Source: an uncultured delta proteobacterium (GTDB lineage Bacteria > Myxococcota_A > Polyangia > Fen-1088). Taken from it: a stretch of DNA of 64,000 bases. Position 1 is the first letter of the stretch, and every line of letters begins with the position of its first letter. A program made the position numbers and the translations under genes. Below, piece by piece: positions 405-55,925 of this stretch. The notes below the pieces were generated by a model. The model was not told where the DNA came from. It saw nothing but the letters and a program-made list of their open reading frames with translations, and made no database searches. Where the stretch lies: the NCBI GenBank assembly GCA_963737265.1, contig CAVTRY010000016.1, positions 64,001-128,000 on the forward strand, written 5' to 3'.

Positions 405-1472
405 GTGGAGGACGGGGGGGCACGGCGCCGGGCGCAGGTGGTCGTGACGGGCGCGGCGACGGCGCTCATCATCGCCGTCGGGTTACCGCTCTGGCGCCCG
501 TTGCTGGTCGCCGCGGTCCTGGCGGGCGCGCTGTCACCGCTCTACGAATCTGCGGTGCGGCGCCTGGGCGGCCGGCGCTCCTTCGGCGCCGGGTTGTTTA
601 CGGCCGCCACTGTCATCCTGATCCTGATTCCAATCGCGTTACTCGCGATCATTGCCGTGCGCGAGGCAACCCAGGCGGTCGGGCTCGTTCGCGACACCAT
701 CGCGTCCGAGGGGATCCGGGGCCTCATCGCGGAGGCGCCCGATCCGCTCGAGGGCTGGTTGCGGCGGTTGATGAAGCTGCTGCCGACCGAGAGCGGCCCC
801 GCGGCGTCACAGCTCGGTGCCGGCGGGCGCTGGGCGCTGGGCGCGCTGTCGGGCGCGCTGTCGGTGCTGGCCCAATTCGGAATCCGGTTCGTGTTGATGT
901 TGATCGCGCTCTTCTTCCTGCTGCGCGACGGCCCCGCGCTGGTCGACTGGTTCGTCGGCGCGACGCCGCTGGCGCCCGAGCGCGCGCGAGAGATGATGCG
1001 GGAGTTCCGGCTCGTCGCCCGTTCCGTGCTGGGCGCGAACTTCATCACCGCCGCGGCGCAGGCGGCCGTCGCCACGATCGGATTCGCCATCGCCCGCGCT
1101 CCGAGCCCGATCTTCTTCGGCCTGCTCTCCCTGTTCTCGTCGCTGATTCCGTCGGTCGGGACGGCGCTGGTGACGTTCCCCGTCGCCGGGCTGATGCTGC
1201 TGCTCGGTCACCCCTGGTCGGCCCTGTTCCTGGCCGTGTGGGCGGCGCTGGCGGTGGGCCTCGTCGACAATCTCCTGCGGCCGATGCTGATCCGTGGCCA
1301 GGGCCAGCTGAACGGCGCGCTGGTCTTCTTTGCGCTCATCGGCGCGATGAGCGCGTTCGGCGCCGAGGGCCTGTTCGTCGGACCGCTGGCGCTCGCCTTC
1401 TTCCTCGCCGTCGTGCGCACCAGGCGACGCCAGCGAGAGACGCCCGCCGGAGGGGCGATCGGGATCGGATGA
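405..1472 (+). CDS. AI-2E family transporter
   Basis: Multi-TM protein with LFFLLRDG, SLIPSVGT, VDNLLRP and FGAEGLFVGP motifs. Confidence 0.9.
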   Translation: MEDGGARRRAQVVVTGAATALIIAVGLPLWRPLLVAAVLAGALSPLYESAVRRLGGRRSFGAGLFTAATVILILIPIALLAIIAVREATQAVGLVRDTIASEGIRGLIAEAPDPLEGWLRRLMKLLPTESGPAASQLGAGGRWALGALSGALSVLAQFGIRFVLMLIALFFLLRDGPALVDWFVGATPLAPERAREMMREFRLVARSVLGANFITAAAQAAVATIGFAIARAPSPIFFGLLSLFSSLIPSVGTALVTFPVAGLMLLLGHPWSALFLAVWAALAVGLVDNLLRPMLIRGQGQLNGALVFFALIGAMSAFGAEGLFVGPLALAFFLAVVRTRRRQRETPAGGAIGIG

Positions 1473-1482
1473 CGGGCCCGGG

Positions 1483-2094
1483 TCACCTGCCGGTGCTCGT
1501 GCGCAGGCCGACGGCCACCGGCTCGGCGTAGGTCACCTCGACCCTGTCCCCGGGGCTGAGCGACCGCAAGCGCCGCCGCTCTGCCCGATCCTGGACCAGC
1601 AGAGTCTGTGGGCGCTTGTCTGGTGTCACGATCTGAAGCGCCCCCTTGTCGTTGTCGACCGCGGTCACGCGCGCCGCGGTGGTGATGAGCTGCGTGTCCG
1701 CCGCCGCGCCCAGGGCTGGGGCGTTGGCCCGCGTGGGTGCCTCTTGCTCTTGAGCGGCCGGGGCGTCGGCTGGAGCGAGAGACACGACGGAGGACATGTA
1801 GTAGTCGAGCTCGACCTGATCGCCCTTTTGGAGCTGCTCGAACCCCTCGACAGTGGGGGCGACCTTGACGGTCATCCGAGAGCCGCCAGGGCCTTGCACG
1901 ACCAAGGATCGGTTCGAGCGGTCGACCTTTTCGACCGAGAACGAAGCGGTGGTCGTCTCCTGTTGCTGCTCGGCCGACGACGATGGTTCTGCCGTCGCGG
2001 TCACCGAATTGTCGGCGTCGGCGTAGGCATCAGCGCCGACGGGAAAACCGACACCCAAACTCAACAGCGCCGCCATCACACTGGCCCCGCTCAT
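1483..2094 (-). CDS. Exported protein with two beta-rich repeats; paralog of 36940-37542
   Basis: GGAGG RBS before ATG 2094; signal-peptide-like N-terminus; two VxxVD..GDxVxxxY repeats. Confidence 0.75.
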   Translation of the reverse strand: MSGASVMAALLSLGVGFPVGADAYADADNSVTATAEPSSSAEQQQETTTASFSVEKVDRSNRSLVVQGPGGSRMTVKVAPTVEGFEQLQKGDQVELDYYMSSVVSLAPADAPAAQEQEAPTRANAPALGAAADTQLITTAARVTAVDNDKGALQIVTPDKRPQTLLVQDRAERRRLRSLSPGDRVEVTYAEPVAVGLRTSTGR

Positions 2095-2148
2095 GAGTGC
2101 CTCCGTTGTCAATATGTCCGCGGGCGGGTTTTCGGCAAGCAGAGGCGC

Positions 2149-2177
2149 AAATCGGCACAAATCGGCACAAATCGGCA
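2149..2177. repeat. Short tandem decamer AAATCGGCAC (about 3 copies) in a divergent intergenic region
   Basis: aaatcggcac aaatcggcac aaatcggca read directly. Confidence 0.6.
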
Positions 2178-2305
2178 ATCGATGGTCTGTGCGCGCTCGA
2201 GCTAGGGGGTTGACGAGATCCCGCCGGCTTCGTCAGACTGAGGCAAACCGACTGGGATCCGTGTCTAGGGGGGAGCGGGTTCCGAGGCCAAAAAGGCGAA
2301 ATGGA

Positions 2306-3976
2306 ATGACCCCTCTCAGTCTGCGCCAACGACCGCGGGTGCGCCTCGCGCCGCCCGACTTCGCGAATCCTCCCTCGCTCGACCCGCCGAGCGAAGGCGC
2401 GCGCCGTTCCCCTCGGCCGGGCGCCGCCCGTGAGCGGATTCTCCTGGTGGAAGACGACCGGAGCATCCGGGCCGCGCTGCAGGGGATTCTGGAGGACGAA
2501 GGTTACGCCGTCACGACGGCCGAGAACGGACGTCAGGCCCTGGAGCGGCTTCGATCGAGCCCGGTGCCCGAGCTCATCGTCCTCGATCTTCGAATGCCCG
2601 TCATGGACGGCTGGGAGTTCCGCGCCGCGCAGAAGCAGGACCCCGCGCTGGCGCGGATTCCGGTGCTGGCCGTGTCGGCCGACGGGAGCGCCAAGGCTGC
2701 GGCGATCGACGCGCAAGCCTACCTGCGCAAGCCGCTCGATACCGACGCGCTTCTCAACGCGATCGGCCGGATCCTGGGAGAGGCCGATCGGCAAAATCTG
2801 TTGCGGCGGCTCGAAGAGGCGGAGCGTTTTGCCGCGCTCGGCAGGCTGGCCGCGAGCGTCGGCCACGAGATCAACAACCCGCTCGCTTATGTCTCGATGA
2901 ATGTCGATCTCGCGGCCGCCCAGCTGGATCGGTTCCTCGGGCCAGACGTCAGGGGTGCCGTCTCCTCGGCCGGCCTGGCCAACCTTCCCGGCCTCTTCCG
3001 TGAATGTCGCGTGGGGCTCGACCGCATCCGCGACGTGGTCAAGGATCTGCAGCGGCTCTCCCGCCAGTCCGAAGTGACACGCGAAACGTTCTCCCTCAAT
3101 GATCTCCTGGACGAGTCGCTGGCGATGGCGAGAAATCAGGTCGCGCATCGTGCCCGGGTGCGCAAGCTCTACGGGGAAGTTCACGCGGTCGTCGGGGATC
3201 GCTCCGCCCTCGGGCAGGTTCTGCTCAACCTCATCCTGAACGCCGCCCAGGCGCTCCCCGAGGGGCAGGCCGACACGAACGAGATCACACTGCGGACCTC
3301 CACGGAGGGAGCGACGGTCACCGTCGAGGTCAGCGACACGGGCGCGGGAATCCCGCCCCAGGTGCTGCCGCACATCTTCGATCCCTTCTTCACGACGAAG
3401 CCAATCGGTGAGGGGACTGGGCTGGGGCTGGCCGTCTCTTGCCGCATCGTCGCCGACCACGGAGGTCGAATCGATGTCGAGAGCGACGTCGGTCGCGGCT
3501 CGGTCTTCCGGGTCATTCTTCCTCTCGTGCGACCCGAGGTCCCACAGACGCCCCGAGACGAGGACCAGGGCGCGCGAACCGAACGGGCGATCTCGCGCGC
3601 GCGGATCCTGGTGATCGACGACCAGCCGACCTTCGGCCGAACGATCTCGCGGGCGTTGACCGAGCACGACGTCACGGTGGTGGCAAGGGCGGTCGAGGCG
3701 TTCGCGCTGCTGACGGCAGGGGAGGAGTTTGACGTCATCCTCTGCGACCTCTTGATGCCCGAAATGGGGGGACGCGGCGTATTCGAGCGAATCAAGGCCG
3801 ACTGGCCGCATCTGGCCCCCCGAACGATCTTCATGACCGGCGGCGCGTTCACGCCCGAGTCGCGCCAGTTCCTCGAACGATCGCAGCAGACGGTTCTCAC
3901 CAAGCCTTTCTCTTTGGACGTGCTGCGGGCCGCTGTCTACGCGTTGATGGAAGACCGCACCGACGGTCCCAATTGA
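2306..3976 (+). CDS. Hybrid histidine kinase REC-HisKA-HATPase-REC
   Basis: ILLVEDD..DLRMP receiver; HEINNPL H-box; NAAQA, DTGAGI, FFTTK, GTGLGL; C-terminal receiver. Start uncertain (ORF is open from 2093). Confidence 0.92.
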   Translation: MTPLSLRQRPRVRLAPPDFANPPSLDPPSEGARRSPRPGAARERILLVEDDRSIRAALQGILEDEGYAVTTAENGRQALERLRSSPVPELIVLDLRMPVMDGWEFRAAQKQDPALARIPVLAVSADGSAKAAAIDAQAYLRKPLDTDALLNAIGRILGEADRQNLLRRLEEAERFAALGRLAASVGHEINNPLAYVSMNVDLAAAQLDRFLGPDVRGAVSSAGLANLPGLFRECRVGLDRIRDVVKDLQRLSRQSEVTRETFSLNDLLDESLAMARNQVAHRARVRKLYGEVHAVVGDRSALGQVLLNLILNAAQALPEGQADTNEITLRTSTEGATVTVEVSDTGAGIPPQVLPHIFDPFFTTKPIGEGTGLGLAVSCRIVADHGGRIDVESDVGRGSVFRVILPLVRPEVPQTPRDEDQGARTERAISRARILVIDDQPTFGRTISRALTEHDVTVVARAVEAFALLTAGEEFDVILCDLLMPEMGGRGVFERIKADWPHLAPRTIFMTGGAFTPESRQFLERSQQTVLTKPFSLDVLRAAVYALMEDRTDGPN

Positions 3977-5451
3977 TGAAGCGCGAGGCTTGGTCCGGGC
4001 TGGCGCGAGATCTGGATTGGGACTTCACCTACGTTCGGCAGGAAGAGGTCTTTCCGACCGCGGTGAGCGGGCGCCCCTGGCTTCCGCACGAAGAGTGGAA
4101 AGGGTGGGAGGAGCCCTACAAGACGACCTACGCAGACTACGTCGCCAACCAGAGCGAGAAGGAGCGCGCCCTCGGGGCTGTGCGCGCGGCGCTCGGTCGG
4201 ATCTCGGACTTCAAGCGGCTGCCCCGCACCTGGTTGAGCGCGCTCAAGCTCCACAATGCGACGCTGCCGCTGGCGGAGTTCGCGGCGGTGATTGGCAACC
4301 TGCGCGCCGCGCGCTTCGGCCGCACCGCCGCCTGGCGCACGGCGGCCAGCTTCGGGGCGCTCGACGAGCTTCGTCACACGCAGATTCCCCTTCTGCTCAT
4401 GCATCCGCTGGTCGCCTGGGACGAGCAGTTCGACTGGACGCATCGATTTTTTCACACCGACAACTGGGTGGCGATCGCGGCCCGCCACCTCACCGACGAG
4501 CTCCTGCTGGGGGCCGATCCGATCGAGTTCGCCGTGGGGACCAACTTCGTGTTCGAGACCGGCTTCACCAACCTGCAGTTCATCGGCCTGTCGGCGGTGG
4601 CGCACGACGTGGGGGATCGCCTGTTCGAGACCCTGCTCGGCAGCATTCAGAGCGACGAGGCGCGCCATGCCCAGATCGGCGGGCCGGTGTTGGCCAAGTT
4701 GGTCGAGAAGGATCCCGAGCGGGCCCAGCGCCTCGTCGACAAATGGTTCTGGCGGAGCTGGCAGCTGTTCGCGATCGTGACCGGCTTCGCGATGGACTAC
4801 CTCACGCCGCTCGCCGAGCGCGGAGCGTCGTTCAAGGAGTTCATGCAGGAGTGGGTGGTCGACCAATTCCTGCAAACGCTGCGCGCGTACGGGCTCGAGC
4901 GCCCCTGGTACTGGGAGACGTTCCTCGGCGCCCTCGAGCACTACCACCACATGGTCTACGCGAGCGCGTACACCTATCGGGCGTCGGTCTGGTTCGACCT
5001 CGTCGTGCCTGGGCCCGACGAGCGCGCCTGGCTGCGCGGCAAATATCCCGCCTCCTGGCCCTCGCTGGAGCCGGTCTGGGAGCAGATCACCGCGCGCTGG
5101 CGCGAGGCTGATCCAGGGAACGACTTCGCGGTGCACGGCGCCGCCATCGTCGGTTTTTGCGAGCTGTGTCAGCTGGTCCTTTGCGGCGGGACCCCCGCGC
5201 GGAACAGCGCGGTCGTCGCCGAGCATGGGGGGCGCCGGCGGATCTTCTGCTCGGAGCCCTGCCGCTGGATCTTCGAGAGCGAGCCCGAGCGCTACGCGGG
5301 GCACGCCGGGATCGTGCAACGGGTCCTCGCCGGGAAGGCGCCCGCCAACATCCTGGCGCTCTTGCGACAGACCTTCGGCCTCACCTACGACAGCTGGGGC
5401 AAGGACGCCTTCGGCGGCGAGTATCCCTGGCTGGTGCGGGAGCGACCATGA
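3976..5451 (+). CDS. tmoA: Soluble di-iron aromatic monooxygenase alpha subunit (TmoA/TouA-like, with C-terminal YHS-like region)
   Basis: Di-iron ligands LAEFAA, DELRH, FETGFTN, DEARH; WEEPYKTTY; FCSEPCRWIF. Confidence 0.9.
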   Translation: MKREAWSGLARDLDWDFTYVRQEEVFPTAVSGRPWLPHEEWKGWEEPYKTTYADYVANQSEKERALGAVRAALGRISDFKRLPRTWLSALKLHNATLPLAEFAAVIGNLRAARFGRTAAWRTAASFGALDELRHTQIPLLLMHPLVAWDEQFDWTHRFFHTDNWVAIAARHLTDELLLGADPIEFAVGTNFVFETGFTNLQFIGLSAVAHDVGDRLFETLLGSIQSDEARHAQIGGPVLAKLVEKDPERAQRLVDKWFWRSWQLFAIVTGFAMDYLTPLAERGASFKEFMQEWVVDQFLQTLRAYGLERPWYWETFLGALEHYHHMVYASAYTYRASVWFDLVVPGPDERAWLRGKYPASWPSLEPVWEQITARWREADPGNDFAVHGAAIVGFCELCQLVLCGGTPARNSAVVAEHGGRRRIFCSEPCRWIFESEPERYAGHAGIVQRVLAGKAPANILALLRQTFGLTYDSWGKDAFGGEYPWLVRERP

Positions 5452-5702
5452 CGGTGATGCCGCTCTACGGATTCGTGCAGGGGGACACGATGGGCGTCGT
5501 GGTGCTGGGACGGCTCGACGCCCCCGTCGCCCAGCTGGGCGCCGACCTCCTGCGCGCGGTGGGGGTGCGGATCAACCGCCAGGGGCCCTACCAGCTGCGG
5601 GCTGGCGCGCGCCGGCTCGATCCCGATGCCACCTTGCGGACAGAGGCGCTCGCGCCGCTCGACCGGATCGATCTCGTTTGGGACCAGGGAGCGTCCGCAT
5701 GA
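5448..5702 (+). CDS. tmoB: Monooxygenase gamma subunit (TmoB-like)
   Basis: 84 aa, PLYGFVQGD..PLDRIDL; ATGA overlap with the alpha subunit; canonical operon position. Confidence 0.8.
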   Translation: MTVMPLYGFVQGDTMGVVVLGRLDAPVAQLGADLLRAVGVRINRQGPYQLRAGARRLDPDATLRTEALAPLDRIDLVWDQGASA

Positions 5703-6010
5703 CCTTCAAGTCTGTTCTCCGGCAAGACGACCTCTGGATCGGCGAGATGACCGGAGTGAAGGTCGAGGGGTGCCCGGTCCTTCTGGTCAACGTCGAGGGG
5801 ACGGTGTGCGCCTACGAAGATCGCTGTCGCCACCTGGCCCGCCCCCTCAGCGAGGGAAAGCTCACCGGCAATCGGCTGGTCTGCGCGGCCCACGCCTGGG
5901 AGTACGACGCTTGCACGGGCCGCGGCATCAACCCCGACAACATGGCGCTCCGCCGCTACCCGGTCCGGATCGCCGACGGCGAAATTCTGGTGGATCTCGA
6001 TGCTGTCTGA
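5699..6010 (+). CDS. tmoC: Rieske ferredoxin (TmoC-like)
   Basis: CRH..CAAHAWEYD..TG.GINP Rieske motifs; ATGA overlap. Confidence 0.88.
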   Translation: MTFKSVLRQDDLWIGEMTGVKVEGCPVLLVNVEGTVCAYEDRCRHLARPLSEGKLTGNRLVCAAHAWEYDACTGRGINPDNMALRRYPVRIADGEILVDLDAV

Positions 6011-6299
6011 GCGTCTGGCCCCGAGCGAGGTCGGGCCGGTGCTGCTCTGCGGCCGCGTCTCGGACGCGATCGTCGCCGCCATCCGGCAGCAGAACGCCGG
6101 CGTGCGCCTGTCGCAGCGAGGCTCCTACCTGCGCGTCTCCGTCTCCACGCGGTGCGAGGTCCGCGCCGACGCCGTCGCCACGCTGCTGGGCGAGCCGTTC
6201 CGGATCCCGCAGGACCTCGAACGGGTCATGCCTTCGTTTCGCGGTCGGCTGTTCCTGTCGGAAGAGATGGCCGCCTGGGAGGCGAGCGCGCTGCCATGA
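6000..6299 (+). CDS. tmoD: Monooxygenase effector/coupling protein (TmoD/MmoB/DmpM family)
   Basis: VGPVL, RGSYLRV, LGEPFRIP.DLE..MPSFRGR. Confidence 0.85.
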   Translation: MLSERLAPSEVGPVLLCGRVSDAIVAAIRQQNAGVRLSQRGSYLRVSVSTRCEVRADAVATLLGEPFRIPQDLERVMPSFRGRLFLSEEMAAWEASALP

Positions 6300-7246
6300 A
6301 ACCTGCGCGCAAGACCTACTGGCACCTCGGTGCCGGGCGACGGTTGCCGTCGGACTACGAGATCGCCACGTCGCGGCTCCTCTATTACGTCGACCGCGGT
6401 GGATTCGCTGTCGATCTGCCGACCTCGGACTTCTACCGGCGCCATCAGACGGGGTCGTTGCTCGTCTCCGATCGCTGGGACGAGCTTTGCGATCCGCGCG
6501 CCACGACCTACACGAAGTATGTCGACATCGAACGAGAGCGGGAAGCCTATGTAGGCCGGCTGCTGACCACCATCGAGGAGTCGGACTACGATCGGGGGCT
6601 CCCCGGCGCCTGGCTCGGGACCCTGGGTGGCGCGCTCTCTCCGCTCCGTTTCCTCTGTCACGGCCTGCAGATGGTGGCGGCCTACATCGGACAGATGGCC
6701 CCGAGCGGACGCATCGCCGTCGCGGCGCTGTTCCAGTGCGGCGACGAGATCCGGCGCATTCAACGCTTCGCCTACCGGCTGGCGCTGCTCGCGCGGTGCA
6801 GCCCCGACCTCGGGACGGCAGGACGCGGCCTCTGGCAGTCCGATCCCCGCTGGCAGCCGTTGCGACGGGCGATCGAGCGACTGCTGGTCGCCTACGATTG
6901 GGGCGAGGCGTTCGTCGCCCTCAATGTCTGCCTCAAGCCGATGATCGACGACCTCTTCCTGGTTCAGTTGGCCGAGCTTGCGGAGCGCTCGCGCGACCAC
7001 CTGGACGCGCAGATCCTCCGCTCGCTGTTCGAGGACTCCGAGTGGCACGTCGCCTGGACGGAAGCGCTGCTGGCGCACGCCTACGCCGACCGGTCTGACA
7101 ACCGCGCCGTGGTCGCGGGTTGGATTGATGCTTGGGCGCCGACCGTCGAGGCGGCCGCCGTCGCCGCCGCCGCGCTCTTGGGGACGGAACGGCAATCGAC
7201 GGCCGCCGTCATCGGGCGACAAAAAGAGGGGGGTGCGTTTGGCTGA
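6296..7246 (+). CDS. tmoE: Monooxygenase beta subunit (TmoE-like)
   Basis: KTYWHL...RRLPSDYEI.TSRLLY, DPRATTYTKY, YDWGEAFVALN. Confidence 0.88.
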   Translation: MKPARKTYWHLGAGRRLPSDYEIATSRLLYYVDRGGFAVDLPTSDFYRRHQTGSLLVSDRWDELCDPRATTYTKYVDIEREREAYVGRLLTTIEESDYDRGLPGAWLGTLGGALSPLRFLCHGLQMVAAYIGQMAPSGRIAVAALFQCGDEIRRIQRFAYRLALLARCSPDLGTAGRGLWQSDPRWQPLRRAIERLLVAYDWGEAFVALNVCLKPMIDDLFLVQLAELAERSRDHLDAQILRSLFEDSEWHVAWTEALLAHAYADRSDNRAVVAGWIDAWAPTVEAAAVAAAALLGTERQSTAAVIGRQKEGGAFG

Positions 7247-8732
7247 CGGAGGGACGTTGCCGACGGCGTGGCGGGCGACCGCGTTCGAGCAGCTCGCCGA
7301 CGAGAGCTTGGACGGCGTCTGGGCCTGCGACCGCGAGCTCCGCTGTCTCTACTGGAACGCGACCATGGAGCGGCTCTCCGCCCTGCCGGCGGCGCGCGTC
7401 CTCGGCTATGGAATCAACGAGGTTCTCTCGCGGCTCGGCGACCGCGACGAGACGTCCTCGATCCGCGCCGTGCTCGAGGGAACGGCGGGCGTGTCGTCCG
7501 AGCGACGTGCCGCCACCCGCGAGGAGGCCCCGGGGACGTTCCGGACGCACTATCTGCCGATTCGTTCGGAGGTCGGGGAGGTGGTGGGCGTCGCCGCCAT
7601 GGTCCGAGACGTCACCGAAGAGGACCTGATCCGCCAGGCCCTGCGCGAGACCGACGCACGCTTCCGAAACATGGCGGACGCCTCGCCGGTGCTGCTCTGG
7701 ATGTCGAGATCCGACGGGCTCTGCACCTTCTTCAACCAAACGTGGCTGGCGTTTACCGGACGGACGATGGAAGAGGAATGGGGCGTCGGCTGGGCCGAGA
7801 ACGTCCACTTCGAGGACCTCGAGTCCTGCCTGGAGACCTACCGGGCGGCCTTCAACCAGCGGCGGCTGTTCGAGATGGAGTACCGCCTTCGCCGAAAGGA
7901 CGGTGCCTACCGCTGGATCCTCGACCGAGGGACGCCCCGCTACGTGCCGGACGGCCAGTTCGCGGGATACATCGGCTCGTGCGTCGACATCACGGAGCGC
8001 CGCGAGCTGGAGTCCGAGCTGCGCGGCGCCATCGAGGCGCGCGACGATTTTCTCTCCGTCGCCTCGCACGAGCTCGGGACGCCGCTCACGGCCCTCAAGC
8101 TGCACGTCGAACAGCTCCAGCGCACGCTCGGCCCCGCGCCTGCGGGCCCGGCCGGTCCGCGGTCGCTGGAGGGACGCGTCGAATCCATCGCCCAAGATGT
8201 CCAGCGCCTGGGGCATCTGGTGGAGACGCTGCTCGACAGCACGCGCCTGGCCGTCGGCGCCTGGAAGCCGCAAATAGAGCGCGTCGATCTCGGACAGCTG
8301 GTCGAACAGATTGTCGGAGAGCTCGCGCCCGTGGCGGAGGCGGCTGGATGCGCGGTGAAGCTTCGGAGCCAGGCCGGTCTGCTCGGACACTGGGATCGCG
8401 GCAGCCTGGAACAGACAGTGACCAACGTCCTCGGCAACGCTTTCAAGTTCGGCGCCGGCGCACCGGTCGAGATCGAGCTCGAGGGGGACGGCGCCTCGGC
8501 GACGGCGCGCATCCGCGACCACGGCGTCGGCCTTCCGGTGGAGCAGCACGAGGTGATCTTTCAGCGGTTCGGCCGGGCACCACACACGCGCGGTTACGGG
8601 GGCTTGGGTTTGGGGCTCTGGATCGCCCGTCAGTTTCTGGAGGCGATGGGCGGATCGATTCGCGTCAGGAGCACGGCCGGCGCCGGTGCGACGTTCGAGA
8701 TCGCGTTGCGCTGTGAGCCGGAGCGCTCATAG
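7239..8732 (+). CDS. PAS-PAS sensor histidine kinase
   Basis: PAS motifs (FNQTWLAFTG, EYRLRRKDGAYRWI); ASHELGTPL H-box; NAFKF, DHGVG, GLGLGL. TTG start behind a purine-rich RBS, overlapping the tmoE stop. Confidence 0.9.
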   Translation: MADGGTLPTAWRATAFEQLADESLDGVWACDRELRCLYWNATMERLSALPAARVLGYGINEVLSRLGDRDETSSIRAVLEGTAGVSSERRAATREEAPGTFRTHYLPIRSEVGEVVGVAAMVRDVTEEDLIRQALRETDARFRNMADASPVLLWMSRSDGLCTFFNQTWLAFTGRTMEEEWGVGWAENVHFEDLESCLETYRAAFNQRRLFEMEYRLRRKDGAYRWILDRGTPRYVPDGQFAGYIGSCVDITERRELESELRGAIEARDDFLSVASHELGTPLTALKLHVEQLQRTLGPAPAGPAGPRSLEGRVESIAQDVQRLGHLVETLLDSTRLAVGAWKPQIERVDLGQLVEQIVGELAPVAEAAGCAVKLRSQAGLLGHWDRGSLEQTVTNVLGNAFKFGAGAPVEIELEGDGASATARIRDHGVGLPVEQHEVIFQRFGRAPHTRGYGGLGLGLWIARQFLEAMGGSIRVRSTAGAGATFEIALRCEPERS

Positions 8733-8782
8733 GGACGGGCTCGCGGATCGAGATTGAGGGCTCTCGAACGCCGGTCGCTCAA

Positions 8783-8816
8783 GGTTTCGAAACCGCTTGG
8801 TGCAAGTTTCGAAACT
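8783..8816. promoter_or_regulatory. Pair of perfect 12-bp palindromes, candidate operator/enhancer
   Basis: GGTTTCGAAACC (8783-8794) and AGTTTCGAAACT (8805-8816), 22 bp apart, in an AT-richer intergenic region. Confidence 0.55.
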
Positions 8817-8930
8817 CGTTCCCAATGAGTGACCCAGAAGGTATCCAAAGTGCCAGTTTCCCTTGAGTCTCTCGAATTCGATGAACATTGATTCTTGAGC
8901 TAAACCAGCGTTCGTGAAACCATTTGGACC

Positions 8931-10094
8931 GTGGACGGGGCGATCGGGGCAAACGAACAGCCAACCGTCTTGGTTGTCGATGACGAGCCCTCCATCGCTC
9001 GAGCGACCGAGAGGGTCCTCACCAAAGAGGGCTACAGGGTCGCGATTGCGGCCGGGGGACTGCAGGCGATCGACCTGGCTCGTTCGACGAGGTTCGACGC
9101 GATCGTCAGCGATCTCGCCATGCCGGACATGGACGGGCGGGCCTTGCTGCGCGCCGTCCGAGCGTCGGATCTGGATGTCCCCTTCGTCTTTTTGACCGGC
9201 AGCCCGGACCTTCAAAGCGCGATCGAGGCGATCGAGTACGGGGCCTTCCGCTACCTCATCAAACCCGTTCCGATAGACGAGCTTGCCGACGTCGTGAACC
9301 GAGCGGTCCGATGGCATCGTTTCGCCGTCGCTCGGCGAGAGGCTGCGCCCGAGATCCAGGGTCGGCCGATCGGCGATCGTGCGGGTCTGGAGGTGCGCTT
9401 CGCGGCCGCCCTCGAGCGGCTCTGGATGGCCACGCAGCCGATCGTCTCGTGCGGTCAGCGATCCGTGCTGGCCTACGAGACGCTGGTTCGTACCGACGAG
9501 CCGACGTTCCGAGGCCCACCCGACCTGCTCGATGCCGCGGAGAGGCTGGGGAGGACCGCGGAGCTCGGGCGACGGATTCGTCGGTTGGTCGCCGACCTCA
9601 TACCGGCAGCGCCCCCGTCGGCGTTGATATTCGTCAATCTGCATCCCGCCGACCTCGAAGATGACGAGCTGTCTGCGAGGGATGGGGTACTCACTCCCTT
9701 TGCGAGCCGGGTGGTCCTGGAGATCACCGAACGGGCCGCCCTCGACGGCATCCGTGGTCTTCGTGATCGGGTGGAGCATCTTCGGGCGCTCGGGTTTCGG
9801 ATCGCCATCGATGATCTCGGCGCGGGCTACGCCGGGCTGTCGAGCTGTGCCGCTCTGGAACCGGACGTCATCAAGGCGGACATGTCGCTCGTGCGCGGGA
9901 TCGAGACCTCGCCGATTCGACAAAAATTGATGCGCGCGATCGTCGCGCTGTCGAACGACCTCGGCGTGCAGCTGATCGCCGAAGGGGTCGAAACAGCCGC
10001 GGAGCAGGACTGCGTCGCCGCGCTCGGCGCGCACGCCGTGCAGGGCTACTTCTTCGCGAGACCAGGTCGTGGGTTTCCTTCGATTGCAACCTGA
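8931..10094 (+). CDS. REC-EAL cyclic dinucleotide phosphodiesterase
   Basis: N-terminal receiver; YETLVR, FVNLHP, LEITER, DDLGAGYAGL, IKAD, AEGVET, QGYFFARP. Confidence 0.92.
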   Translation: MDGAIGANEQPTVLVVDDEPSIARATERVLTKEGYRVAIAAGGLQAIDLARSTRFDAIVSDLAMPDMDGRALLRAVRASDLDVPFVFLTGSPDLQSAIEAIEYGAFRYLIKPVPIDELADVVNRAVRWHRFAVARREAAPEIQGRPIGDRAGLEVRFAAALERLWMATQPIVSCGQRSVLAYETLVRTDEPTFRGPPDLLDAAERLGRTAELGRRIRRLVADLIPAAPPSALIFVNLHPADLEDDELSARDGVLTPFASRVVLEITERAALDGIRGLRDRVEHLRALGFRIAIDDLGAGYAGLSSCAALEPDVIKADMSLVRGIETSPIRQKLMRAIVALSNDLGVQLIAEGVETAAEQDCVAALGAHAVQGYFFARPGRGFPSIAT

Positions 10095-10148
10095 GAGAGG
10101 GGCGTGGATGGAGACCTTGGATGGTCGCGGGCGTGGACCCCGTGAAAC

Positions 10149-10433
10149 GTGAAGCCCTGCACCGGCCGGATGGTCGTCGCGACCTGGGTGGCAATCGCGG
10201 TCCTCACGGGGGCGACGGTCGCCATGTTGAAGTTGACGAACGTGCCCGGCGAGCAGCTCTACGATTCCGTCATCGATGGCGGGGGGGTGGAGGTCGCCGC
10301 CACCATCTTTGTGTGGTGGTCCGTTGTGACCTTCGCGTGCGGCGCCTCTCTCACCTGGGCTGCGTTGGCGTTGCGAGCTCGTGTCGTGGCGCGCCGACTG
10401 CAGCGCGACACCCGTGAGCCAGATGCGCGATGA
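10149..10433 (+). CDS. Small hypothetical membrane protein
   Basis: 94-aa ORF with two hydrophobic segments; no recognised motif. Confidence 0.45.
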   Translation: MKPCTGRMVVATWVAIAVLTGATVAMLKLTNVPGEQLYDSVIDGGGVEVAATIFVWWSVVTFACGASLTWAALALRARVVARRLQRDTREPDAR

Positions 10434-10452
10434 CCGGAGCGACGCTTCGCCC

Positions 10453-10560
10453 ATCGAGATGCCTAAGGACGAAGTCGATGCGATCGCTGCCTGGATGCGC
10501 TCGATGACGGGCGCGCCGGATCCCGCCTACATCGCGGCTCCCCGGCTGCCCCCGGGTTGA
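10453..10560 (+). pseudogene. 3' remnant of a cytochrome c peroxidase paralog
   Basis: Translates IEMPKDEVDAIAAWMRSMTGAPDPAYIAAPRLPPG*, matching the C-terminus of 12164-13186 (EEEVYAIADWMRSMTGEPDPDYIAAPELPPGG*). Confidence 0.8.
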
Positions 10561-10566
10561 GGACGG

Positions 10567-11958
10567 CTAGGTCTCGAAGTCGCGGGCACGAATCCCGAGG
10601 CTTTTCATCTTCACGTGCAGCGTCTTGAAATCCGTGCTGAGGCTGCGCGCGGCCTCGCTCTTGTTGCCTTGCGCTGCCCTCAGCGCCTCGCAGATCACTT
10701 GACGTTCCGCTTCGCGGGCCGCTCGATCGGCGACCTCCTTGAGCGTTTGGCCGGGCAATCTCGTCGCGATCGCTGCGGAGGCTGTTTCGACCACACCGAG
10801 ACATCTCTGGATCGTTGCGCGCTCCAGGAGCAAATCTTTTGATTCGAGAACCGCCTGCCGGATCACGTTGCGAAGCTCGCGGACGTTGCCTGGCCAGGAA
10901 TGACGCTTGAGGAAGTCCAGAGCTTCGGGCGCGATCCCCTGCATCGGATGGCGCAACTCGACGCTCACCTCGCGCATGAATCGCTCGGCGAGGTGAGCGA
11001 TGTCTTCGGGCCGATCCCGCAGCGGGGGAAGATGGATCGTGTACTGGGCGAGCCGGAAATACAGGTCTGAGCGAAACTGTCCTTCCTTGACGCGGGCCTG
11101 CAGATCGCTGTTCGTGGCCGCGATGAACCGCACGTCAATGGACGTTGGCTGGCTGGCTCCAACCACCTGGAGCTTCCGCGACTCGAGCACCCGGAGCAGC
11201 TTGGCCTGGAGACCGAGGGGGAGGTTGCCGATCTCGTCGAGAAACAGGGTGCCGCTTTCGGCGAGGTGAAAGTGTCCGGTCCTCCGCCGGTCAGCGCCCG
11301 TGAAGGCGCCCTTTTCATGTCCGAACAATTCGGATTCGAGAAGCGCCTCCGGGATGGCGCCGCAGTCGAGAGCGATGAACGGCTTCGTACGCCGTTCGCT
11401 TTCGCGGTGGAGCGCGCTGGCCACCAAGTCCTTGCCCGTTCCGGTCTCTCCCAGAACCAACACGGAGAAGTTCGTGGCGGCGACGGTCGTCACCTGTTCA
11501 ATGATTCGTCCGACGATCGGGCTCGGACCCATCAGCGTGTCCAGTCCCCCGGCGCCGGTCCGGCGCCGGAGCTCTTCGACCTCGCTCAAAAGGGCGCGCG
11601 CTTGCAGAGCACGCCCGACCACCAGACTGATCTCGGTTGAGTCGAATGGCTTGGTGAGATAGTCGACCGCTCCGAGTTGCATCGCGCGCACGGCCGTTTT
11701 GACGTCGTCACAGCCGGTGAGCATGACCACCGGAAGGCCGGGCTTGGCGACCTTCAGTCGCTCGAGCACCTGGATGCCGTCGAGCCTGGGAAGCTCGAGG
11801 TCCACGATGACGATGTCGGGTTCGCGGGCGGTCACCAGGGCAAGCCCGCCCTCACCGTCCTCGGCGGTCAACACCTCAAAACCCTCCTTGACGAAGATCG
11901 CCGTCAACAGCCGAAGAATGGCGGGATCATCGTCGACCGCCAGTAGCCGCCGACCCAT
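10567..11958 (-). CDS. Sigma-54-dependent response regulator (NtrC family)
   Basis: Receiver, GETGTGK, GAFTGA, LFLDEIG, WPGNVREL, C-terminal HTH. Confidence 0.95.
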   Translation of the reverse strand: MGRRLLAVDDDPAILRLLTAIFVKEGFEVLTAEDGEGGLALVTAREPDIVIVDLELPRLDGIQVLERLKVAKPGLPVVMLTGCDDVKTAVRAMQLGAVDYLTKPFDSTEISLVVGRALQARALLSEVEELRRRTGAGGLDTLMGPSPIVGRIIEQVTTVAATNFSVLVLGETGTGKDLVASALHRESERRTKPFIALDCGAIPEALLESELFGHEKGAFTGADRRRTGHFHLAESGTLFLDEIGNLPLGLQAKLLRVLESRKLQVVGASQPTSIDVRFIAATNSDLQARVKEGQFRSDLYFRLAQYTIHLPPLRDRPEDIAHLAERFMREVSVELRHPMQGIAPEALDFLKRHSWPGNVRELRNVIRQAVLESKDLLLERATIQRCLGVVETASAAIATRLPGQTLKEVADRAAREAERQVICEALRAAQGNKSEAARSLSTDFKTLHVKMKSLGIRARDFET

Positions 11959-12163
11959 GTCAACCTCGCCGACCACCGTAACAGACCGACGCGACCATCA
12001 CCAGCGATCGTCGGTCCAGACTGGTCTGGATCGAGGCGAGATCACCAGGACTGTGGCACGGGCTCCAGAGAGCGCGCGCCGACAAATGGCCACCGGCACG
12101 CACAATCCCCGCACTTCGGTCTGGTCTTTGGTGTCGGCACGCCGTTCGCAGTGGGCGAGAGGT

Positions 12164-13186: not shown

Positions 13187-13245
13187 AGAGAGACAGTCGT
13201 TTGGGCTTGGCGAGGCGCGCGGCCGGACCGGTGTACACTCGACCT

Positions 13246-14625
13246 GTGGATACCTTGATCGTCGACGACGATCCCGCTGTTCGAGCGGTCTTGCGCAAGC
13301 TCCTGACCCGACGGGGCGACAATGTCCTCGAAGCGGAGGATGGGAGGCAAGCGATCGATCAGCTCGGCGCCCGGGCGGTCGATCTGGTCATCACGGACCT
13401 GCTCATGCCTCGTGCGAACGGGCTCGAGGTTTTGCGCCACGTGCGCGAAAGAAGACCGCAGATCCCCGTGATCATGCTGACCGCTGAAGGATCCATCCGG
13501 GACTGCGTCGAAGCCATGCGGGCCGGCGCATTCAATTTCCTGACCAAGCCGTTCCACACTGACGACCTCGAGGAGATCATCCGCCAGGCAACCTGCGCTC
13601 GGGGGCTACGACCCGCATCGGGTGCTGGCGCCTCGGGCCCGGCAACACCCGCCGAGCCTGGGCAGCCGCAGATCGCGCTGGTCGGCGAATCAAATGCTCT
13701 ACGGGCCGTCATCGACATGGTCGAACGGATCGCGGGAAGCGGTTCCACCGTGCTCATCACCGGAGAAAGCGGGACAGGCAAGGAGGTGGTCGCGCGGCTG
13801 CTTCACTATTCCTCGCCGCGGGTGGGGCAACCGTTCGTCGCCGTGAACTGCGGGGCTATTCCCGAAACCCTGATCGAAAGCGAGCTCTTCGGCCACGTCA
13901 AGGGGGCCTTCACCGGAGCCGTCGACTCGCGCCCGGGGCGGTTCGCCCAGGCCGACGGTGGAACGTTGTTTCTCGACGAGATCGGCGAGCTGGCGTTGCC
14001 CCTTCAGGTGCGCCTTCTGCGCGTCTTGCAGGAGCGGGTGATCACCCCAGTGGGTGACTCACGGGTCCGCGCGGTCGACGTCCGGATCATCGCCGCCACC
14101 AACCGCGACCTCGAGGGCATGGTCAAGGAGGGGAAATTTCGGCAGGACCTCTTCTATCGGCTGGAGGTCTTGCCCGTCAGGTTACCCGCTCTTCGCGAAC
14201 GTCGCGAAGACATCCCGCTTCTGGCCGCACATTTCCTCGAGTCGACGAACCAACGCTTGGGCCGCCAGATCGCCATATCCGAGGGCGCGCTGGCAGTCAT
14301 GCGGCTCTATGACTGGCCCGGCAACGTGCGCGAAATGGAAAATCTGTTCGAGCGTCTCGTCGTTCTTTCACGTGGAGGCGCGATCAGTGCCTCCGACCTG
14401 CCAGAGCGCATGCGCTCTGGCCCGGCTGCGGCACAGATCGCCGACGCTTCGGCGTCTCTTGCCCTCGGCGCCTTCAACCTCGTCGCGTCAATGGCGGCCA
14501 TCGAAAGTACGCTGATCGAACAGGCGATGCGGCAAGCGAGCGGCAATAAGACCCGTGCGGCGGAGCTTCTCGGCATCAGTCGGACGACCCTCCTCGACAA
14601 GTTGAAGCGGGGGAATGGCGATTGA
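13246..14625 (+). CDS. Sigma-54-dependent response regulator (NtrC family)
   Basis: Receiver, [41 protein letters not shown]. Confidence 0.95.
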
Positions 14626-26237: not shown

Positions 26238-27755
26238 ATGGAGACGGTGGAAACGGAACAACGACTGGCGGGCGAAAGGGGAAATCTCGAGCGACTGGTC
26301 GGCGAGGTCGGACGGGGCGGCCGTGCCCTCGTTGGCGAGGCCACCCGTGCTCTGGTCAGGCGCTTCGGTGATCGGGGGTCGTTCGTTCTGGTCGACGACC
26401 GCGCCCGCGTCGTGCTGTCGACGGACGCGCCCAGCCTGAGTGACCTGCGCATCGATCTCGCTCGTTATCCGGAGATCACCGCGTCCCTCGAGAGCCACGA
26501 GATCGTGTGCATCGAGGATGTGCGACGATCGACCACGCTGGAGCCGGTCGCGAATCTCCTGCCGAATCACCTGGGCGCTGTGGTGGTGATTCCGCTGGTG
26601 GCCGGGCCACGCTGTCTGGGCGTCATCGTGGTTCGGTCGGAGCGGCCGCGCGAAGTCCTTCAGACTGACGTTGTGGCGGCGCGTTTCGAGGGTCGACTGC
26701 TGGCGACTTTGCTCGAGCTCCAATTCGGAAACGACCTCAGCAACGAGCTAAAGCTGGTGCCCGGGGCGCCAGTGGGCCTCGTCCCGCTGGCCACCCGGCC
26801 TGCGCCGCTGCCGATCGGCAAAAGGCGGCGAATTGTCGTGGCCGAGGACGACCTCGACCAGGGAGCAACGATCGAAGACCTTCTGATCGCCGAAGGCTTC
26901 GATGTGGTGCTGACCCAGAACGGCGAGGAGCTCCTGCAGGAGGTTCAGCGCGCCCCACCTGATCTCATCCTGCTCGACGGACACATGCCGGTTCTCAACG
27001 GCTTCCACGCCGCCGAAAGCCTTCACGCCGATCCCCGAACCTCCAGTGTTCCCATCCTCTTCCTCTCGGCGGCCGAAGACCTGCTGTTCCGCCTCCGGGA
27101 GCTGAAACCCGACACGATCGATTTCTTGCGGAAGCCGTACGCTCCCGCAGAGCTGCTGGAGCGTATCGAACGAGCCCTGAACCGGGGGCTGGTGTACGAA
27201 GAGCTGCGCGCGGAGGCGGAAGTCGATGCCCTGACGGGGCTCAGCAACGCGCGCGCGCTGCTCAGAAGCCTGACCGTCGAGCAGTCCCGCATCTCGAGGT
27301 ACGGTGCCACGTCAGTCGTCGTCATGATGGACGTCGACAAGCTCAAGACCATCAATGATCGCCATGGGCACGTCGTGGGGAGCCGGATCCTCCAGGCCAT
27401 CGGAGCGCTGCTGCGCGGGATGATTCGCGAGACTGATCTCGCGGCCCGCTATGGGGGCGACGAATTCGTGGTCATCCTCGCGCACTCGAGCACCGCTGAA
27501 GGGTGCGCGTTCGCCGAGCGCTTCCTCGGCCAGATCCGTCAGCTCTGGCCGGAGGGGATCGATGTCTCCATGAGCATCGGGATCGCTTCCCTGGGGGGAT
27601 CGGACGATCAATCGAGCGACGTGCTCCTCGCCAACGCGGACGCGGCGGCCTATCGGGCCAAACGACTGGGTGGGAACCGCGCCTGCGTCTTCGACAGCGA
27701 GCTCGACGTGATGATGCCGCTCGGCCGCCAGCAGGGTGCGGAAGGTGCCGCTTGA
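26238..27755 (+). CDS. GAF-REC-GGDEF dinucleotide cyclase with Hypr-type Ser
   Basis: DALTGL, DVDKLKTINDRHGHVVGS, RETD I-site, RYGGDEF. Confidence 0.9.
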   Translation: METVETEQRLAGERGNLERLVGEVGRGGRALVGEATRALVRRFGDRGSFVLVDDRARVVLSTDAPSLSDLRIDLARYPEITASLESHEIVCIEDVRRSTTLEPVANLLPNHLGAVVVIPLVAGPRCLGVIVVRSERPREVLQTDVVAARFEGRLLATLLELQFGNDLSNELKLVPGAPVGLVPLATRPAPLPIGKRRRIVVAEDDLDQGATIEDLLIAEGFDVVLTQNGEELLQEVQRAPPDLILLDGHMPVLNGFHAAESLHADPRTSSVPILFLSAAEDLLFRLRELKPDTIDFLRKPYAPAELLERIERALNRGLVYEELRAEAEVDALTGLSNARALLRSLTVEQSRISRYGATSVVVMMDVDKLKTINDRHGHVVGSRILQAIGALLRGMIRETDLAARYGGDEFVVILAHSSTAEGCAFAERFLGQIRQLWPEGIDVSMSIGIASLGGSDDQSSDVLLANADAAAYRAKRLGGNRACVFDSELDVMMPLGRQQGAEGAA

Positions 27756-34275: not shown

Positions 34276-35205
34276 TCACGCTTCTGCAGCAATCGGGCGG
34301 GTGTGTGAAGGACGCGATCCCGCCGCCGCGGGGGTGTCGGGGACGATTTCGGGAGTGAGGGCTTCTGGCGGCACGCGGCGCAGGTCCCACACCAGCCCGA
34401 CCGCGGCGAGCAACCGGAGGACGTAGTAGGTGACGTCGACCTCCCACCAGCGAAACCCCTGTCGGGCCGAGCTTTGATAGTGGTGGTGGTTGTTGTGCCA
34501 GCCCTCGCCGGTCGTCAGCAGCGCGAGCGCCAGGCTGTTGCGGGAGTCATCGGTCGTGGCGTAACGCCGACGGCCGAGCATGTGGGCGAGCGAGTTGATG
34601 GCGAACGTGCCGTGCCAGAGCAACACCGTCGAGACGAAGAAGCCCCAGACGAGACCGTGCAGGCCGCCGAGCGCCAGGCAGGCGAGCGCGTAGACCAGCG
34701 CCGGCAGCAGCTGGACCGCCTTGCGATTCAGGAAGCGAAGCTCCGGGTACCTGGCCAGGTCCGCGACCAGGTCCATGCGGGTGCCGTTGTTGCCGGGGCC
34801 GAGGATCCAGCCGACGTGCGCGTACCAGAAGCCGCGCTGCTGTGCCGAGTGGACATCCTGGGGCGTGTCCGAGTGCTTGTGGTGCCAGCGATGATGGCTG
34901 GCCCACCACAGCACCCCCTTTTGGGCGGCGCTTTGCGCGCCAAGCGCGAGCAGGAACTGAAACGCCCGCGACGTCTTGAACGAGCGGTGCGAAAAATAGC
35001 GATGGTACCCCGCGGTCACCACGACCATTCGGACGAAGTAGGCGGCGACGGCCAAGGCCAAGCCGCTCCATGACGGCCCGCAATAGATGACTCCCGCGAG
35101 AGCCGTCAGGTGAACTCCCCAGAACGGCGCGGCGCCCCTGCTGAAGTAGAGACGGCGGGCAGGGACCCTGCTGGGTGCCGAGGGACGACCGGCTTTGACA
35201 GGCAC
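34276..35205 (-). CDS. Delta-9-type fatty acid desaturase
   Basis: His boxes HRYFSH, HRWHH, GEGWHNNHH. Confidence 0.93.
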   Translation of the reverse strand: MPVKAGRPSAPSRVPARRLYFSRGAAPFWGVHLTALAGVIYCGPSWSGLALAVAAYFVRMVVVTAGYHRYFSHRSFKTSRAFQFLLALGAQSAAQKGVLWWASHHRWHHKHSDTPQDVHSAQQRGFWYAHVGWILGPGNNGTRMDLVADLARYPELRFLNRKAVQLLPALVYALACLALGGLHGLVWGFFVSTVLLWHGTFAINSLAHMLGRRRYATTDDSRNSLALALLTTGEGWHNNHHHYQSSARQGFRWWEVDVTYYVLRLLAAVGLVWDLRRVPPEALTPEIVPDTPAAAGSRPSHTRPIAAEA

Positions 35206-35487
35206 CTATTCTTTGTAACGGTCGGTGCGTCACCGAAAGGCCAGCTCTCGGTCACAATCCCGACAGGCGCGACCGTGGGGGGCGCAGCGAAAAGGGCGTT
35301 CCTGGAGCGTGCGATGCCCTGGCCCCCGATTTGGCAGTTGCCACCAGTAAGGCGGTCGCCGTCGGGCCATGCGCTCCGCCCTTGACGCCCGCCGGCCCAG
35401 CGACACCTTGCCACTTGGCGCGACTTCGGATCAGCTCGGCGCCACCAAGCACTATCGACGGACAAGATCGACACGATCGAAAGGAAG

Positions 35488-48290: not shown

Positions 48291-48292
48291 CT

Positions 48293-48562: not shown

Positions 48563-48566
48563 GGCG

Positions 48567-50159: not shown

Positions 50160-50218
50160 GGTGACCGCCCAAAATCGGACAGATGGGACGGACAGATCGG
50201 ACGCTTCCTGTCAGCAAT

Positions 50219-55252: not shown

Positions 55253-55254
55253 AC

Positions 55255-55923: not shown

Positions 55924-55925
55924 AG

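Follow-up and report, generated by a model that had tools for sequence, protein, structure and literature searches.

We analysed a 64,000-nucleotide stretch of DNA from an uncultured delta proteobacterium (Polyangia, Fen-1088 in the GTDB lineage; positions 64,001 to 128,000 of the forward strand of contig CAVTRY010000016.1, GenBank assembly GCA_963737265.1), hereafter called the window, which encodes a soluble di-iron monooxygenase (SDIMO) set among histidine kinase genes. Pfam assignments show eight genes in a row on the plus strand between positions 2093 and 10094 (Table 1). Seven of them form a block in which neighbours overlap by 1–14 nt, in the order hybrid kinase, hydroxylase alpha, hydroxylase gamma, Rieske ferredoxin, effector, hydroxylase beta and a PAS-PAS kinase. 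The gene calls are our own picks, made by third-position G+C at a window G+C of 62–70%. An initial annotation of this DNA, made from the letters alone, had described the hybrid-kinase stop as overlapping the alpha start, the five subunit genes as overlapping one another and the PAS-PAS kinase as starting inside the end of the beta gene, and the stop and start positions bear out each of these descriptions. Specifically, the hybrid-kinase TGA (3974–3976) and the alpha ATG (3976–3978) have 1 nt in common within TGATG (3974–3978), and ATGA junctions join alpha to gamma (5448–5451), gamma to Rieske (5699–5702) and effector to beta (6296–6299). The effector gene opens with an ATG at 6000, ahead of the Rieske stop (6008–6010), so that these two genes share the 11 nt from 6000 to 6010. 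For the PAS kinase there are two candidate starts, GTG 7233 and TTG 7239, with the purine run AAGAGGGGG ahead of them at 7224–7232, and both precede the beta stop (7244–7246) so that the overlap is 8 or 14 nt. The longest reading frame of the hybrid kinase begins at 2093, and ATG 2306 is the likelier start because homologs align from residue ~70. A chance overlap between hybrid kinase and alpha was considered and dropped, as the same 1-nt overlap recurs in the related loci L003–L007. None of the alpha, gamma, effector and beta products matched any NCBIfam model at 1e-5.

Table 1. Features of the monooxygenase–kinase locus (window coordinates) and conserved residues of the PAS-B domain (kinase numbering; residue counts are among 72 kinases).
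Feature	Position	Strand	Basis or remark
Hybrid histidine kinase, REC-HisKA-HATPase-REC	2093..3976	+	Pfam
SDIMO hydroxylase alpha, TmoA-like, 491 aa	3976..5451	+	Pfam Phenol_Hydrox 213 bits + YHS
Hydroxylase gamma, TmoB-like, 84 aa	5448..5702	+	Pfam TmoB 24.5 bits, just below cut-off 25
Rieske [2Fe-2S] ferredoxin, TmoC-like, 103 aa	5699..6010	+	Pfam Rieske 64 bits
Effector/coupling protein, MmoB/DmpM family, TmoD-like, 99 aa	6000..6299	+	Pfam MmoB_DmpM 59.5 bits
Hydroxylase beta, TmoE-like, 316 aa	6296..7246	+	Pfam Phenol_Hydrox 189 bits
PAS-A/PAS-B/HisKA/HATPase sensor kinase, 497 aa, in the classical tmoF slot	7239..8732	+	Pfam
PAS-B, clade-defining sensor domain, kinase residues 133-262	7635..8024	+	Conservation; AlphaFold2 (AF2) model, predicted local distance difference test (pLDDT) 95
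PAS-B C162			71/72; start of B-beta (AF2 model)
PAS-B H190			70/72; just before F-alpha (AF2 model)
PAS-B C197			65/72; in F-alpha (AF2 model)
PAS-B C248			69/72; in I-beta (AF2 model)
REC-EAL response regulator, cyclic di-GMP (c-di-GMP) phosphodiesterase type	8931..10094	+	Pfam; 199 nt past the PAS kinase

Linkage to a kinase is a property of a large group of related loci. Homologs of the alpha subunit number more than 1,200 at E<=1e-20, and the best 120 of these are 67–90% identical and, where named, are called 'toluene monooxygenase system protein A' or 'YHS domain-containing protein' and come from metagenome-assembled genomes (MAGs) of Polyangia. A scan of one genome per species yielded 168 loci, the best 80 of which (58–90% identity, all from MAGs) were analysed; their MAGs carry the labels Myxococcota, Bdellovibrionota, Fibrobacterota, Planctomycetota, Acidobacteriota, Actinomycetota, Elusimicrobiota, Melainabacteria and Pseudomonadota. 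A beta subunit was detectable in 73/80 loci, and the order alpha, gamma, Rieske, effector, beta is kept in the window and in 71 of the 73 loci having alpha and beta. The other two, L037 and L058, are rearranged (effector-beta-kinase ... alpha-gamma-Rieske) with beta still next to the kinase. Among the 70 of these loci that extend at least 800 nt beyond beta, 68 have a homolog of the downstream kinase directly after beta on the same strand (66 starting within 800 nt, and L003 and L004 overlapping), and in the remaining two (L069 and L071, both Acidobacteriaceae) a triple-PAS_3 kinase lies upstream in divergent orientation. The kinase linkage on which the initial annotation had built its proposal thus holds in the homologs. 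The bracketing of the enzyme by two kinases, which it had also described, stands only in part. A hybrid-kinase homolog ends at, or 1–2 nt before, the alpha start in L003–L009, which make up the subclade of the window locus, and lies upstream in L073 and L076; elsewhere the hybrid kinase is missing or downstream, as in 18 further loci where it follows the PAS-B kinase. Overall a hybrid kinase is adjacent in at least 27 of the 80 loci. No catabolic neighbour gene is conserved in the 80 loci, as judged by Pfam on 195 flanking open reading frames (ORFs).

The neighbouring genes encode receivers, hybrid kinases and GGDEF/EAL proteins. The second gene after the kinase encodes a single receiver in 8 loci and a receiver-GGDEF/EAL protein in L023, L025, L032 and L072, and a DNA-binding receiver is found in 1/195 flanking ORFs (L070, upstream). 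A search for the sigma54 consensus allowing at most one mismatch gave 4 matches relative to 3.9 expected, none of them upstream of the operon, and sigma70 and terminator scans of positions 1400–10600 gave no excess over shuffled sequences. Elsewhere in the window, a 505-aa GAF-REC-GGDEF protein (26238–27755, plus strand) matches in architecture and size the product encoded one gene downstream of the PAS-B kinase in L023 and L025, and may be a displaced output of the same pathway. A relative that has a kinase-linked operon (genome G059) also has a second, reduced SDIMO-like locus (L097, C21:11000-30000) with an alpha-like gene at 8319–9764 (44% identical) and a beta-like gene at 10459–11382, where Pfam detects neither Rieske nor MmoB nor reductase domains; directly upstream of it are a frame that combines two kinase cores with a receiver, a gene for a single receiver and one for a DJ-1/PfpI protein.

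The catalytic machinery is preserved throughout this group. The window alpha subunit has all six di-iron ligands (E101, E131, H134, E194, E228 and H231), in agreement with the initial annotation, and these ligands together with the equivalents of T201/N202 are kept in 78/78 alpha subunits of the clade. The Rieske cluster ligands C43, H45, C62 and H65 show no variation among 74 sequences and, by tblastn of the loci having alpha and beta, the effector is present in 73/73, gamma in 71/73 and Rieske in 71/73. Because ligands, Rieske protein and effector are kept across the clade, it is the turnover machinery that appears to be selected, more than a binding scaffold, and the enzyme looks fully competent. 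The active-site pocket is almost as uniform. The residues ahead of the first ligand, which the initial annotation had described as unlike those of the toluene enzyme, indeed read ATLPLAE in the window alpha versus GAIAVGE in the solved TmoA chain of toluene 4-monooxygenase (T4MO), and the differing pocket is conserved across the clade. With positions numbered against that chain, the window enzyme has the pocket changes I100L, G103A, Q141P and L192T relative to T4MO. Among the clade alphas, L97 (TmoA I100) is present in 77/78, A100 (TmoA G103) in 74/78, P138 (TmoA Q141) in 78/78, L177 (TmoA I180) in 74/78 and T189 (TmoA L192) in 73/78, F193 and F202 (to which no TmoA position is assigned) are each present in 78/78, and the position of TmoA F176 is variable. 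Six named reference enzymes (see below) differ among themselves at most of these pocket positions. A single, fixed physiological substrate would be in keeping with the near-uniform clade pocket. The YHS domain has four cysteines (C395, C398, C425, C429) in a Cys4 motif that is likewise found in 78/78 clade alphas, is complete in 3/6 references and is missing from the T4MO chain; a Cys4 zinc site is known in phenol hydroxylase. Some clade alphas, P0026, P0037 and P0096 among them, are fused to a TmoB-like gamma in a protein of 591–603 aa (Pfam PF06234 on the same protein).

A reductase gene is what the locus lacks. Group 1 SDIMOs, the four-component alkene/aromatic enzymes, are described as having operons of six genes, in which alpha, gamma, ferredoxin, coupling protein and beta are followed by an NADH oxidoreductase (PMC11825192). 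As a control, all six named group 1 operons on plasmids that we compared have a reductase. A Fer2-type reductase stands right after beta in Xanthobacter Py2, Mycobacterium ELW1, Paraburkholderia aromaticivorans, Xanthobacter dioxanivorans (where the gene is truncated in its record) and Thermomicrobium roseum, and the Rhodococcus koreensis operon has a GR-type reductase instead, after the Rieske gene. In the window, Pfam on the 41 other gene calls found no Fer2/FAD_binding_6/NAD_binding_1 reductase and no ring-cleavage dioxygenase, as the initial annotation had reported. Six reductases from the named operons, five Fer2-FNR and one GR-type, served as tblastn queries and matched 0/80 clade loci at E<=1e-3, with none within 10 kb, and Pfam found a reductase domain in 0/120 downstream and 0/75 upstream flanking ORFs (the 120 leave out two long ones, L026:15234-19829 and L016:14676-17783). 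The absence of tmoF from close homologs, a point on which the proposal of the initial annotation depended, is thereby confirmed.

The search was extended over the genome assembly, which comprises 6.55 Mb in 25 contigs at 99.5% completeness and 7.6% contamination. It has a single Phenol_Hydrox locus, the one described here, and its NAD_binding_1, Fer2 and FAD_binding_6 domains never occur in one frame. FAD_binding_6 occurs once, beside NAD_binding_1 in a 247-aa frame on contig C13 without Fer2. Since the genome is without a three-domain TmoF-type gene, any reductase must act in trans, a possibility for which the initial annotation had left room, and electrons presumably come from a reductase encoded elsewhere. 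The six reductases retrieved from the genome by tblastn only the C13 module (26–30% identity) and a GR-type match on contig C23 (35% over 353 aa). The latter is a 552-aa Rieske + Pyr_redox_2 + Reductase_C fusion (C23:269096-270751; L096:5097-6752, minus strand) beside outer-membrane efflux genes. In a class sample of 151 genomes, 9 of which match the alpha profile, this type of fusion occurs in 7/9 SDIMO genomes and, at E<=1e-60, also in 21 of the 142 remaining genomes, 14 of which match most of the fusion; it mostly tracks one family (13/17) regardless of SDIMO presence. The C23 fusion is therefore no more than a possible electron donor. The genome also gave no catechol 2,3-dioxygenase match and a single weak hit to an intradiol domain.

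The constant partner of the enzyme is a single domain of the downstream kinase, PAS-B. Among 72 kinases the mean frequency of the commonest residue is 0.75 in PAS-B (residues 140–255), relative to 0.36 in the phospho-acceptor domain and 0.39 in the ATPase domain; the value for PAS-A, 0.20, is lowered by the many kinases that have no PAS-A. The kinase core varies between HisKA and HisKA_2, with HisKA_3 at a single locus, and its type switches at least four times on the alpha tree (43 scored rows). Mean pairwise identity is 0.63 for PAS-B versus 0.65 for alpha (r = 0.52). Because PAS-B is conserved like alpha while the core is exchanged, the enzyme is tied to the sensor domain and not to a particular transmitter. 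Three cysteines and one histidine stand out in PAS-B (Table 1), and a generic PAS domain from the same window has none of the four. The B-beta, F-alpha and I-beta elements on which they fall wall the cofactor pocket in the PAS structures of LOV, FixL and NifL. A Foldseek search of the PAS-B model against the PDB returned only generic PAS, LOV, NifL, FixL and AhR matches at 15–24% identity, with no clue to a cofactor, and the kinase compared with solved chains matched kinase cores and generic PAS domains only, with no MmoS among the 56 matches. A LOV-type flavin PAS was considered and dropped, the flavin-binding motif being missing from the PAS-B consensus. The kinase resembles the NCBIfam model 'EpsF' at 225 bits, far below the cut-off of 900.

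Co-occurrence in the class sample is strict at the upper end of the score range. The PAS-B profile scores at least 225 bits in exactly the 9 alpha-bearing genomes, on the same contig, and the distance from alpha to PAS-B is ~2 kb in 8/9 and 0.1 kb in G086, where the alpha match is partial. A second tier of 160–192 bits consists of PAS-B-like domains in stand-alone PAS-HisKA-HATPase kinases of 360–460 aa (L090-L095, from genomes G058, G049, G033, G096, G025 and G086). These have no SDIMO gene within 8 kb and no common neighbour, and they keep the Cys/His pattern, with the first cysteine (C30) in 4/5 and the other three residues in 5/5. These profile results indicate that PAS-B is a PAS subfamily of its own, one branch of which is locked to the monooxygenase.

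Phylogenetic analysis separates the kinase-linked enzymes from those that have a reductase. In a 95-row tree, 78 kinase-linked alphas and two database representatives form one group (Shimodaira–Hasegawa-like approximate likelihood ratio test, SH-aLRT, 99), which stands apart from DmpN and other distant representatives. Its sister group (SH-aLRT 93) consists of the six reference enzymes with a reductase, all of them named alkene/aromatic enzymes, together with three other representatives. A 55-row tree built with a fuller search (43 rows drawn from the 78 kinase-linked ones, together with the six references and five representatives, and rooted on DmpN as outgroup) splits kinase-linked from reductase-bearing rows at bootstrap 100 / SH-aLRT 100. 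None of the named plasmid enzymes exceeds 42% identity, versus 58–90% inside the clade. The window alpha scores 389 bits against the solved T4MO TmoA, 368 against ToMO, 172 against phenol hydroxylase and 66 against MMOH, and its phylogenetic position is with the toluene monooxygenase (TMO)-type group 1 SDIMOs.

Several described systems share parts of this arrangement. TmoABCDEF of Pseudomonas mendocina KR1 and TouABCDEF (toluene/o-xylene monooxygenase, ToMO) have the same alpha, gamma, Rieske, effector, beta order, and the ligands and T201/N202 are kept in the window enzyme; however, TmoABCDEF has a sixth gene, for the reductase, after beta, where the window locus has the PAS kinase, and the catabolic neighbours of the classical toluene systems are not present here. 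Aromatic-sensing kinases of the TodS/TmoS type are double kinases of seven domains (PAS-HK-REC-PAS-HK) that work with a DNA-binding regulator of the TodT type (PMC4321377, PMC4861429). That architecture is not matched by the PAS-PAS-HisKA-HATPase kinase of 497 aa, and none of the 195 flanking ORFs encodes a TodT-type regulator. Another comparison is with MmoS and MmoQ, which together with MmoR are encoded downstream of the soluble methane monooxygenase (sMMO) operon of Methylococcus capsulatus Bath, are considered to link that operon to a cellular signal and are proposed to regulate mmo (PMC7994243). There, as in the window, a PAS-containing kinase and a receiver protein are encoded beside an SDIMO operon, and tandem PAS domains are common to both; in contrast, sMMO retains its reductase MmoC and MmoS is proposed to act in the copper switch of mmo expression, whereas the window locus is without a reductase. 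The MmoS PAS binds FAD, and PAS-B is without a recognisable flavin motif.

The logic of an enzyme that makes the molecule that is sensed also has precedents. For several hydrocarbon monooxygenases the inducer is an oxygenated product of the enzyme, an epoxide or an alcohol (PMC8784404), which is the logic that we propose below. Those product sensors are transcription regulators of catabolic clusters, whereas here a kinase lies inside the operon and would feed a network of several kinases and c-di-GMP enzymes. ArcB is reported to read redox state through two PAS cysteines (PMC11620690), and PAS-B also has conserved PAS cysteines; its pattern of three Cys and one His differs, with no sequence relationship apparent beyond the PAS fold. 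ArcB is, in addition, membrane-anchored and quinone-linked. The literature searched yielded no description of kinase-linked, reductase-less SDIMOs and no biochemical study of a clade member. The 2025 review of Yang, Kertesz and Coleman places uncharacterised MAG enzymes with plausibly aromatic substrates in subgroups A and B, and the word 'kinase' is absent from its main text (PMC11825192).

The reading that we favour, at slightly less than an even chance, is that the locus encodes a competent TMO-type monooxygenase that works as a unit with a dedicated sensor kinase and feeds a phosphorelay. The operon would be expressed as one translationally coupled block, from hybrid kinase through PAS kinase. 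The hydroxylase would obtain electrons through its own Rieske ferredoxin from the reductase encoded elsewhere, and would oxygenate a single small substrate, the same one throughout the clade. PAS-B would then detect a consequence of turnover, most likely an oxygenated or electrophilic product, with a redox change as the alternative, and the kinase would pass phosphate to receivers such as the REC-kinase-REC hybrid, single receivers or receiver-EAL/GGDEF enzymes. The output would be cell signalling (c-di-GMP in some loci, the window included) more than a catabolic pathway alone. Enzyme activity, the trans-acting reductase, the PAS-B signal, the direction of phosphotransfer and the physiological output are what we infer in this scheme, and the 'non-catabolic' and 'O2/redox sensing or signal synthesis' roles put forward in the initial annotation are likewise drawn from gene context. 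A bolder version, which we regard as possible while leaning away from it, casts the SDIMO as a 'receptor enzyme', the catalytic front end of a two-component sensor with which soil predators and other uncultured bacteria might perceive an otherwise silent molecule only after its turnover. Indole or another aromatic, a hydrocarbon or even O2 might be that molecule. PAS-B, which would have taken the place of the reductase in the operon, would read either the product or the electron drain through the Rieske protein and so drive the phosphorelay and c-di-GMP turnover.

Several observations weigh against the favoured reading. The whole case is built from gene context and sequence conservation. All of the loci come from MAGs, and the number of phyla may be overstated through errors of binning. 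The nearest relatives, L003–L009, have other genes downstream and do not share the receiver-EAL gene at this position. Two NtrC-type receiver-sigma54 activators (10567–11976 and 13201–14625) lie 2–6 kb downstream of the window operon. L018 and L073 are without a Rieske gene between gamma and effector. That the three cysteines and the histidine line the PAS-B pocket is a prediction from the secondary structure of the model and the pockets of LOV and FixL. Finally, stand-alone PAS-B-like kinases are present in five genomes without an SDIMO, and as a second copy in G086, and because such kinases occur without the enzyme PAS-B would be able to work without it.

The main rival explanation is that the enzyme is an ordinary catabolic, co-metabolic or detoxifying monooxygenase served by a housekeeping reductase, with the PAS kinase sensing substrate or product and switching only its own operon through a remote DNA-binding regulator. 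A kinase cotranscribed with the enzyme would be equally expected of such a self-regulating operon, whose DNA-binding regulator could be elsewhere, and regulatory pairs beside SDIMO operons are known, such as MmoS/MmoQ downstream of the sMMO operon (PMC7994243), a GAF kinase with a LuxR regulator by smoABCD and a sensor/regulator pair by the etn genes (both PMC8784404). The two receiver-sigma54 activators of the window and the one upstream in L070 could supply the regulator, and the GR-type enzyme of the R. koreensis operon indicates that reductases are exchangeable. On the other hand, a DNA-binding receiver in just one flanking ORF, sigma54 matches that do not exceed chance, partners that are hybrid kinases and c-di-GMP enzymes, the lack of conserved catabolic genes beside the operon in 80 loci and a genome without a meta-cleavage dioxygenase do not fit this account well. 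The reductase is moreover gone from 80/80 loci, which span many phyla, whereas catabolic SDIMOs with a high flux retain it (6/6 references). The missing regulator and catabolic genes and the universal reductase loss thus speak against an ordinary catabolic role, which is nevertheless a serious rival, though less probable than the favoured reading.

An electron-flow or oxygen sensor, in which a metal centre, haem or redox thiols, provided by the three Cys and one His of PAS-B, exchange electrons with the Rieske ferredoxin or read its redox state, the kinase has replaced the reductase as its partner and the di-iron enzyme is an O2- or substrate-dependent electron sink, would account for the kinase standing exactly in the tmoF slot. 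It would also account for C162, H190, C197 and C248, which are kept in 65–71 of 72 kinases, are absent from the generic window PAS and, in a model of high confidence, sit on B-beta, before or in F-alpha, and on I-beta; the two-cysteine redox sensing of the ArcB PAS offers a parallel (PMC11620690). We nevertheless regard such a sensor as improbable. The stand-alone PAS-B kinases keep these residues with no Rieske or SDIMO gene nearby, which argues against an obligatory protein partner, two SDIMO loci have no Rieske gene, and the generic Foldseek matches at 15–24% identity assign no cofactor. Least likely of all, and hardly probable in our estimate, is a biosynthetic role in which the enzyme makes the PAS-B ligand or chromophore, or a diffusible signal, much as the haem oxygenase BphO supplies the chromophore of bacteriophytochrome kinases. 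Enzyme and sensor are strictly co-inherited, and the uniform pocket suggests one endogenous substrate, as such a role would predict; however, stand-alone PAS-B kinases exist in genomes without such an enzyme, no other biosynthetic genes are conserved nearby, and a five-component enzyme is a costly means of making a cofactor.

The favoured reading, if correct, would change how these genes are counted. SDIMOs are generally regarded as catabolic enzymes for hydrocarbons and pollutants, and metagenome surveys count their genes as biodegradation potential; a 2026 MAG survey took complete tmoABCDEF operons only (PMC13603553). The large clade described here departs from the catabolic picture in having shed the reductase, fixed the pocket and joined its fate to one sensor domain. 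On the favoured reading it would represent a new role for the SDIMO family, as signal input, together with a new PAS subfamily that has a Cys/His pocket. It would also be a reason to stop counting the genes of this clade as toluene degradation, and would offer a ready-made design for an enzyme-coupled biosensor.

The remainder of the window contains further genes of interest. The interval 10567–34022 is unusually dense in signalling genes: the two NtrC-type activators flank a di-haem cytochrome c peroxidase/MauG gene, and there are also two PAS hybrid kinases, a GAF-GAF-PAS-PAS kinase of 1066 aa, a kinase with REC and GAF domains and one single receiver. Positions 34276–36639 encode a VanA-type Rieske oxygenase as well as a membrane fatty acid desaturase, and both this Rieske oxygenase (35488–36639) and a flavin monooxygenase (43817–45211) are ~30 kb away from the SDIMO operon. 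The latter belongs to a lipid-modification-like region (41329–50569) that includes an Asp/Asn beta-hydroxylase, a fatty acid hydroxylase, a zinc alcohol dehydrogenase, a ketoacyl synthase, a phosphopantetheinyl transferase, PAP2 and a radical SAM protein that carries an HMPTM zinc ribbon. Finally, three consecutive RHS/YD-repeat proteins of 635 aa, 872 aa and more than 1069 aa, the last running off the window, are encoded on the plus strand at 53345–64000; the last of them has a DUF6531 domain, and the layout is typical of polymorphic toxin loci.

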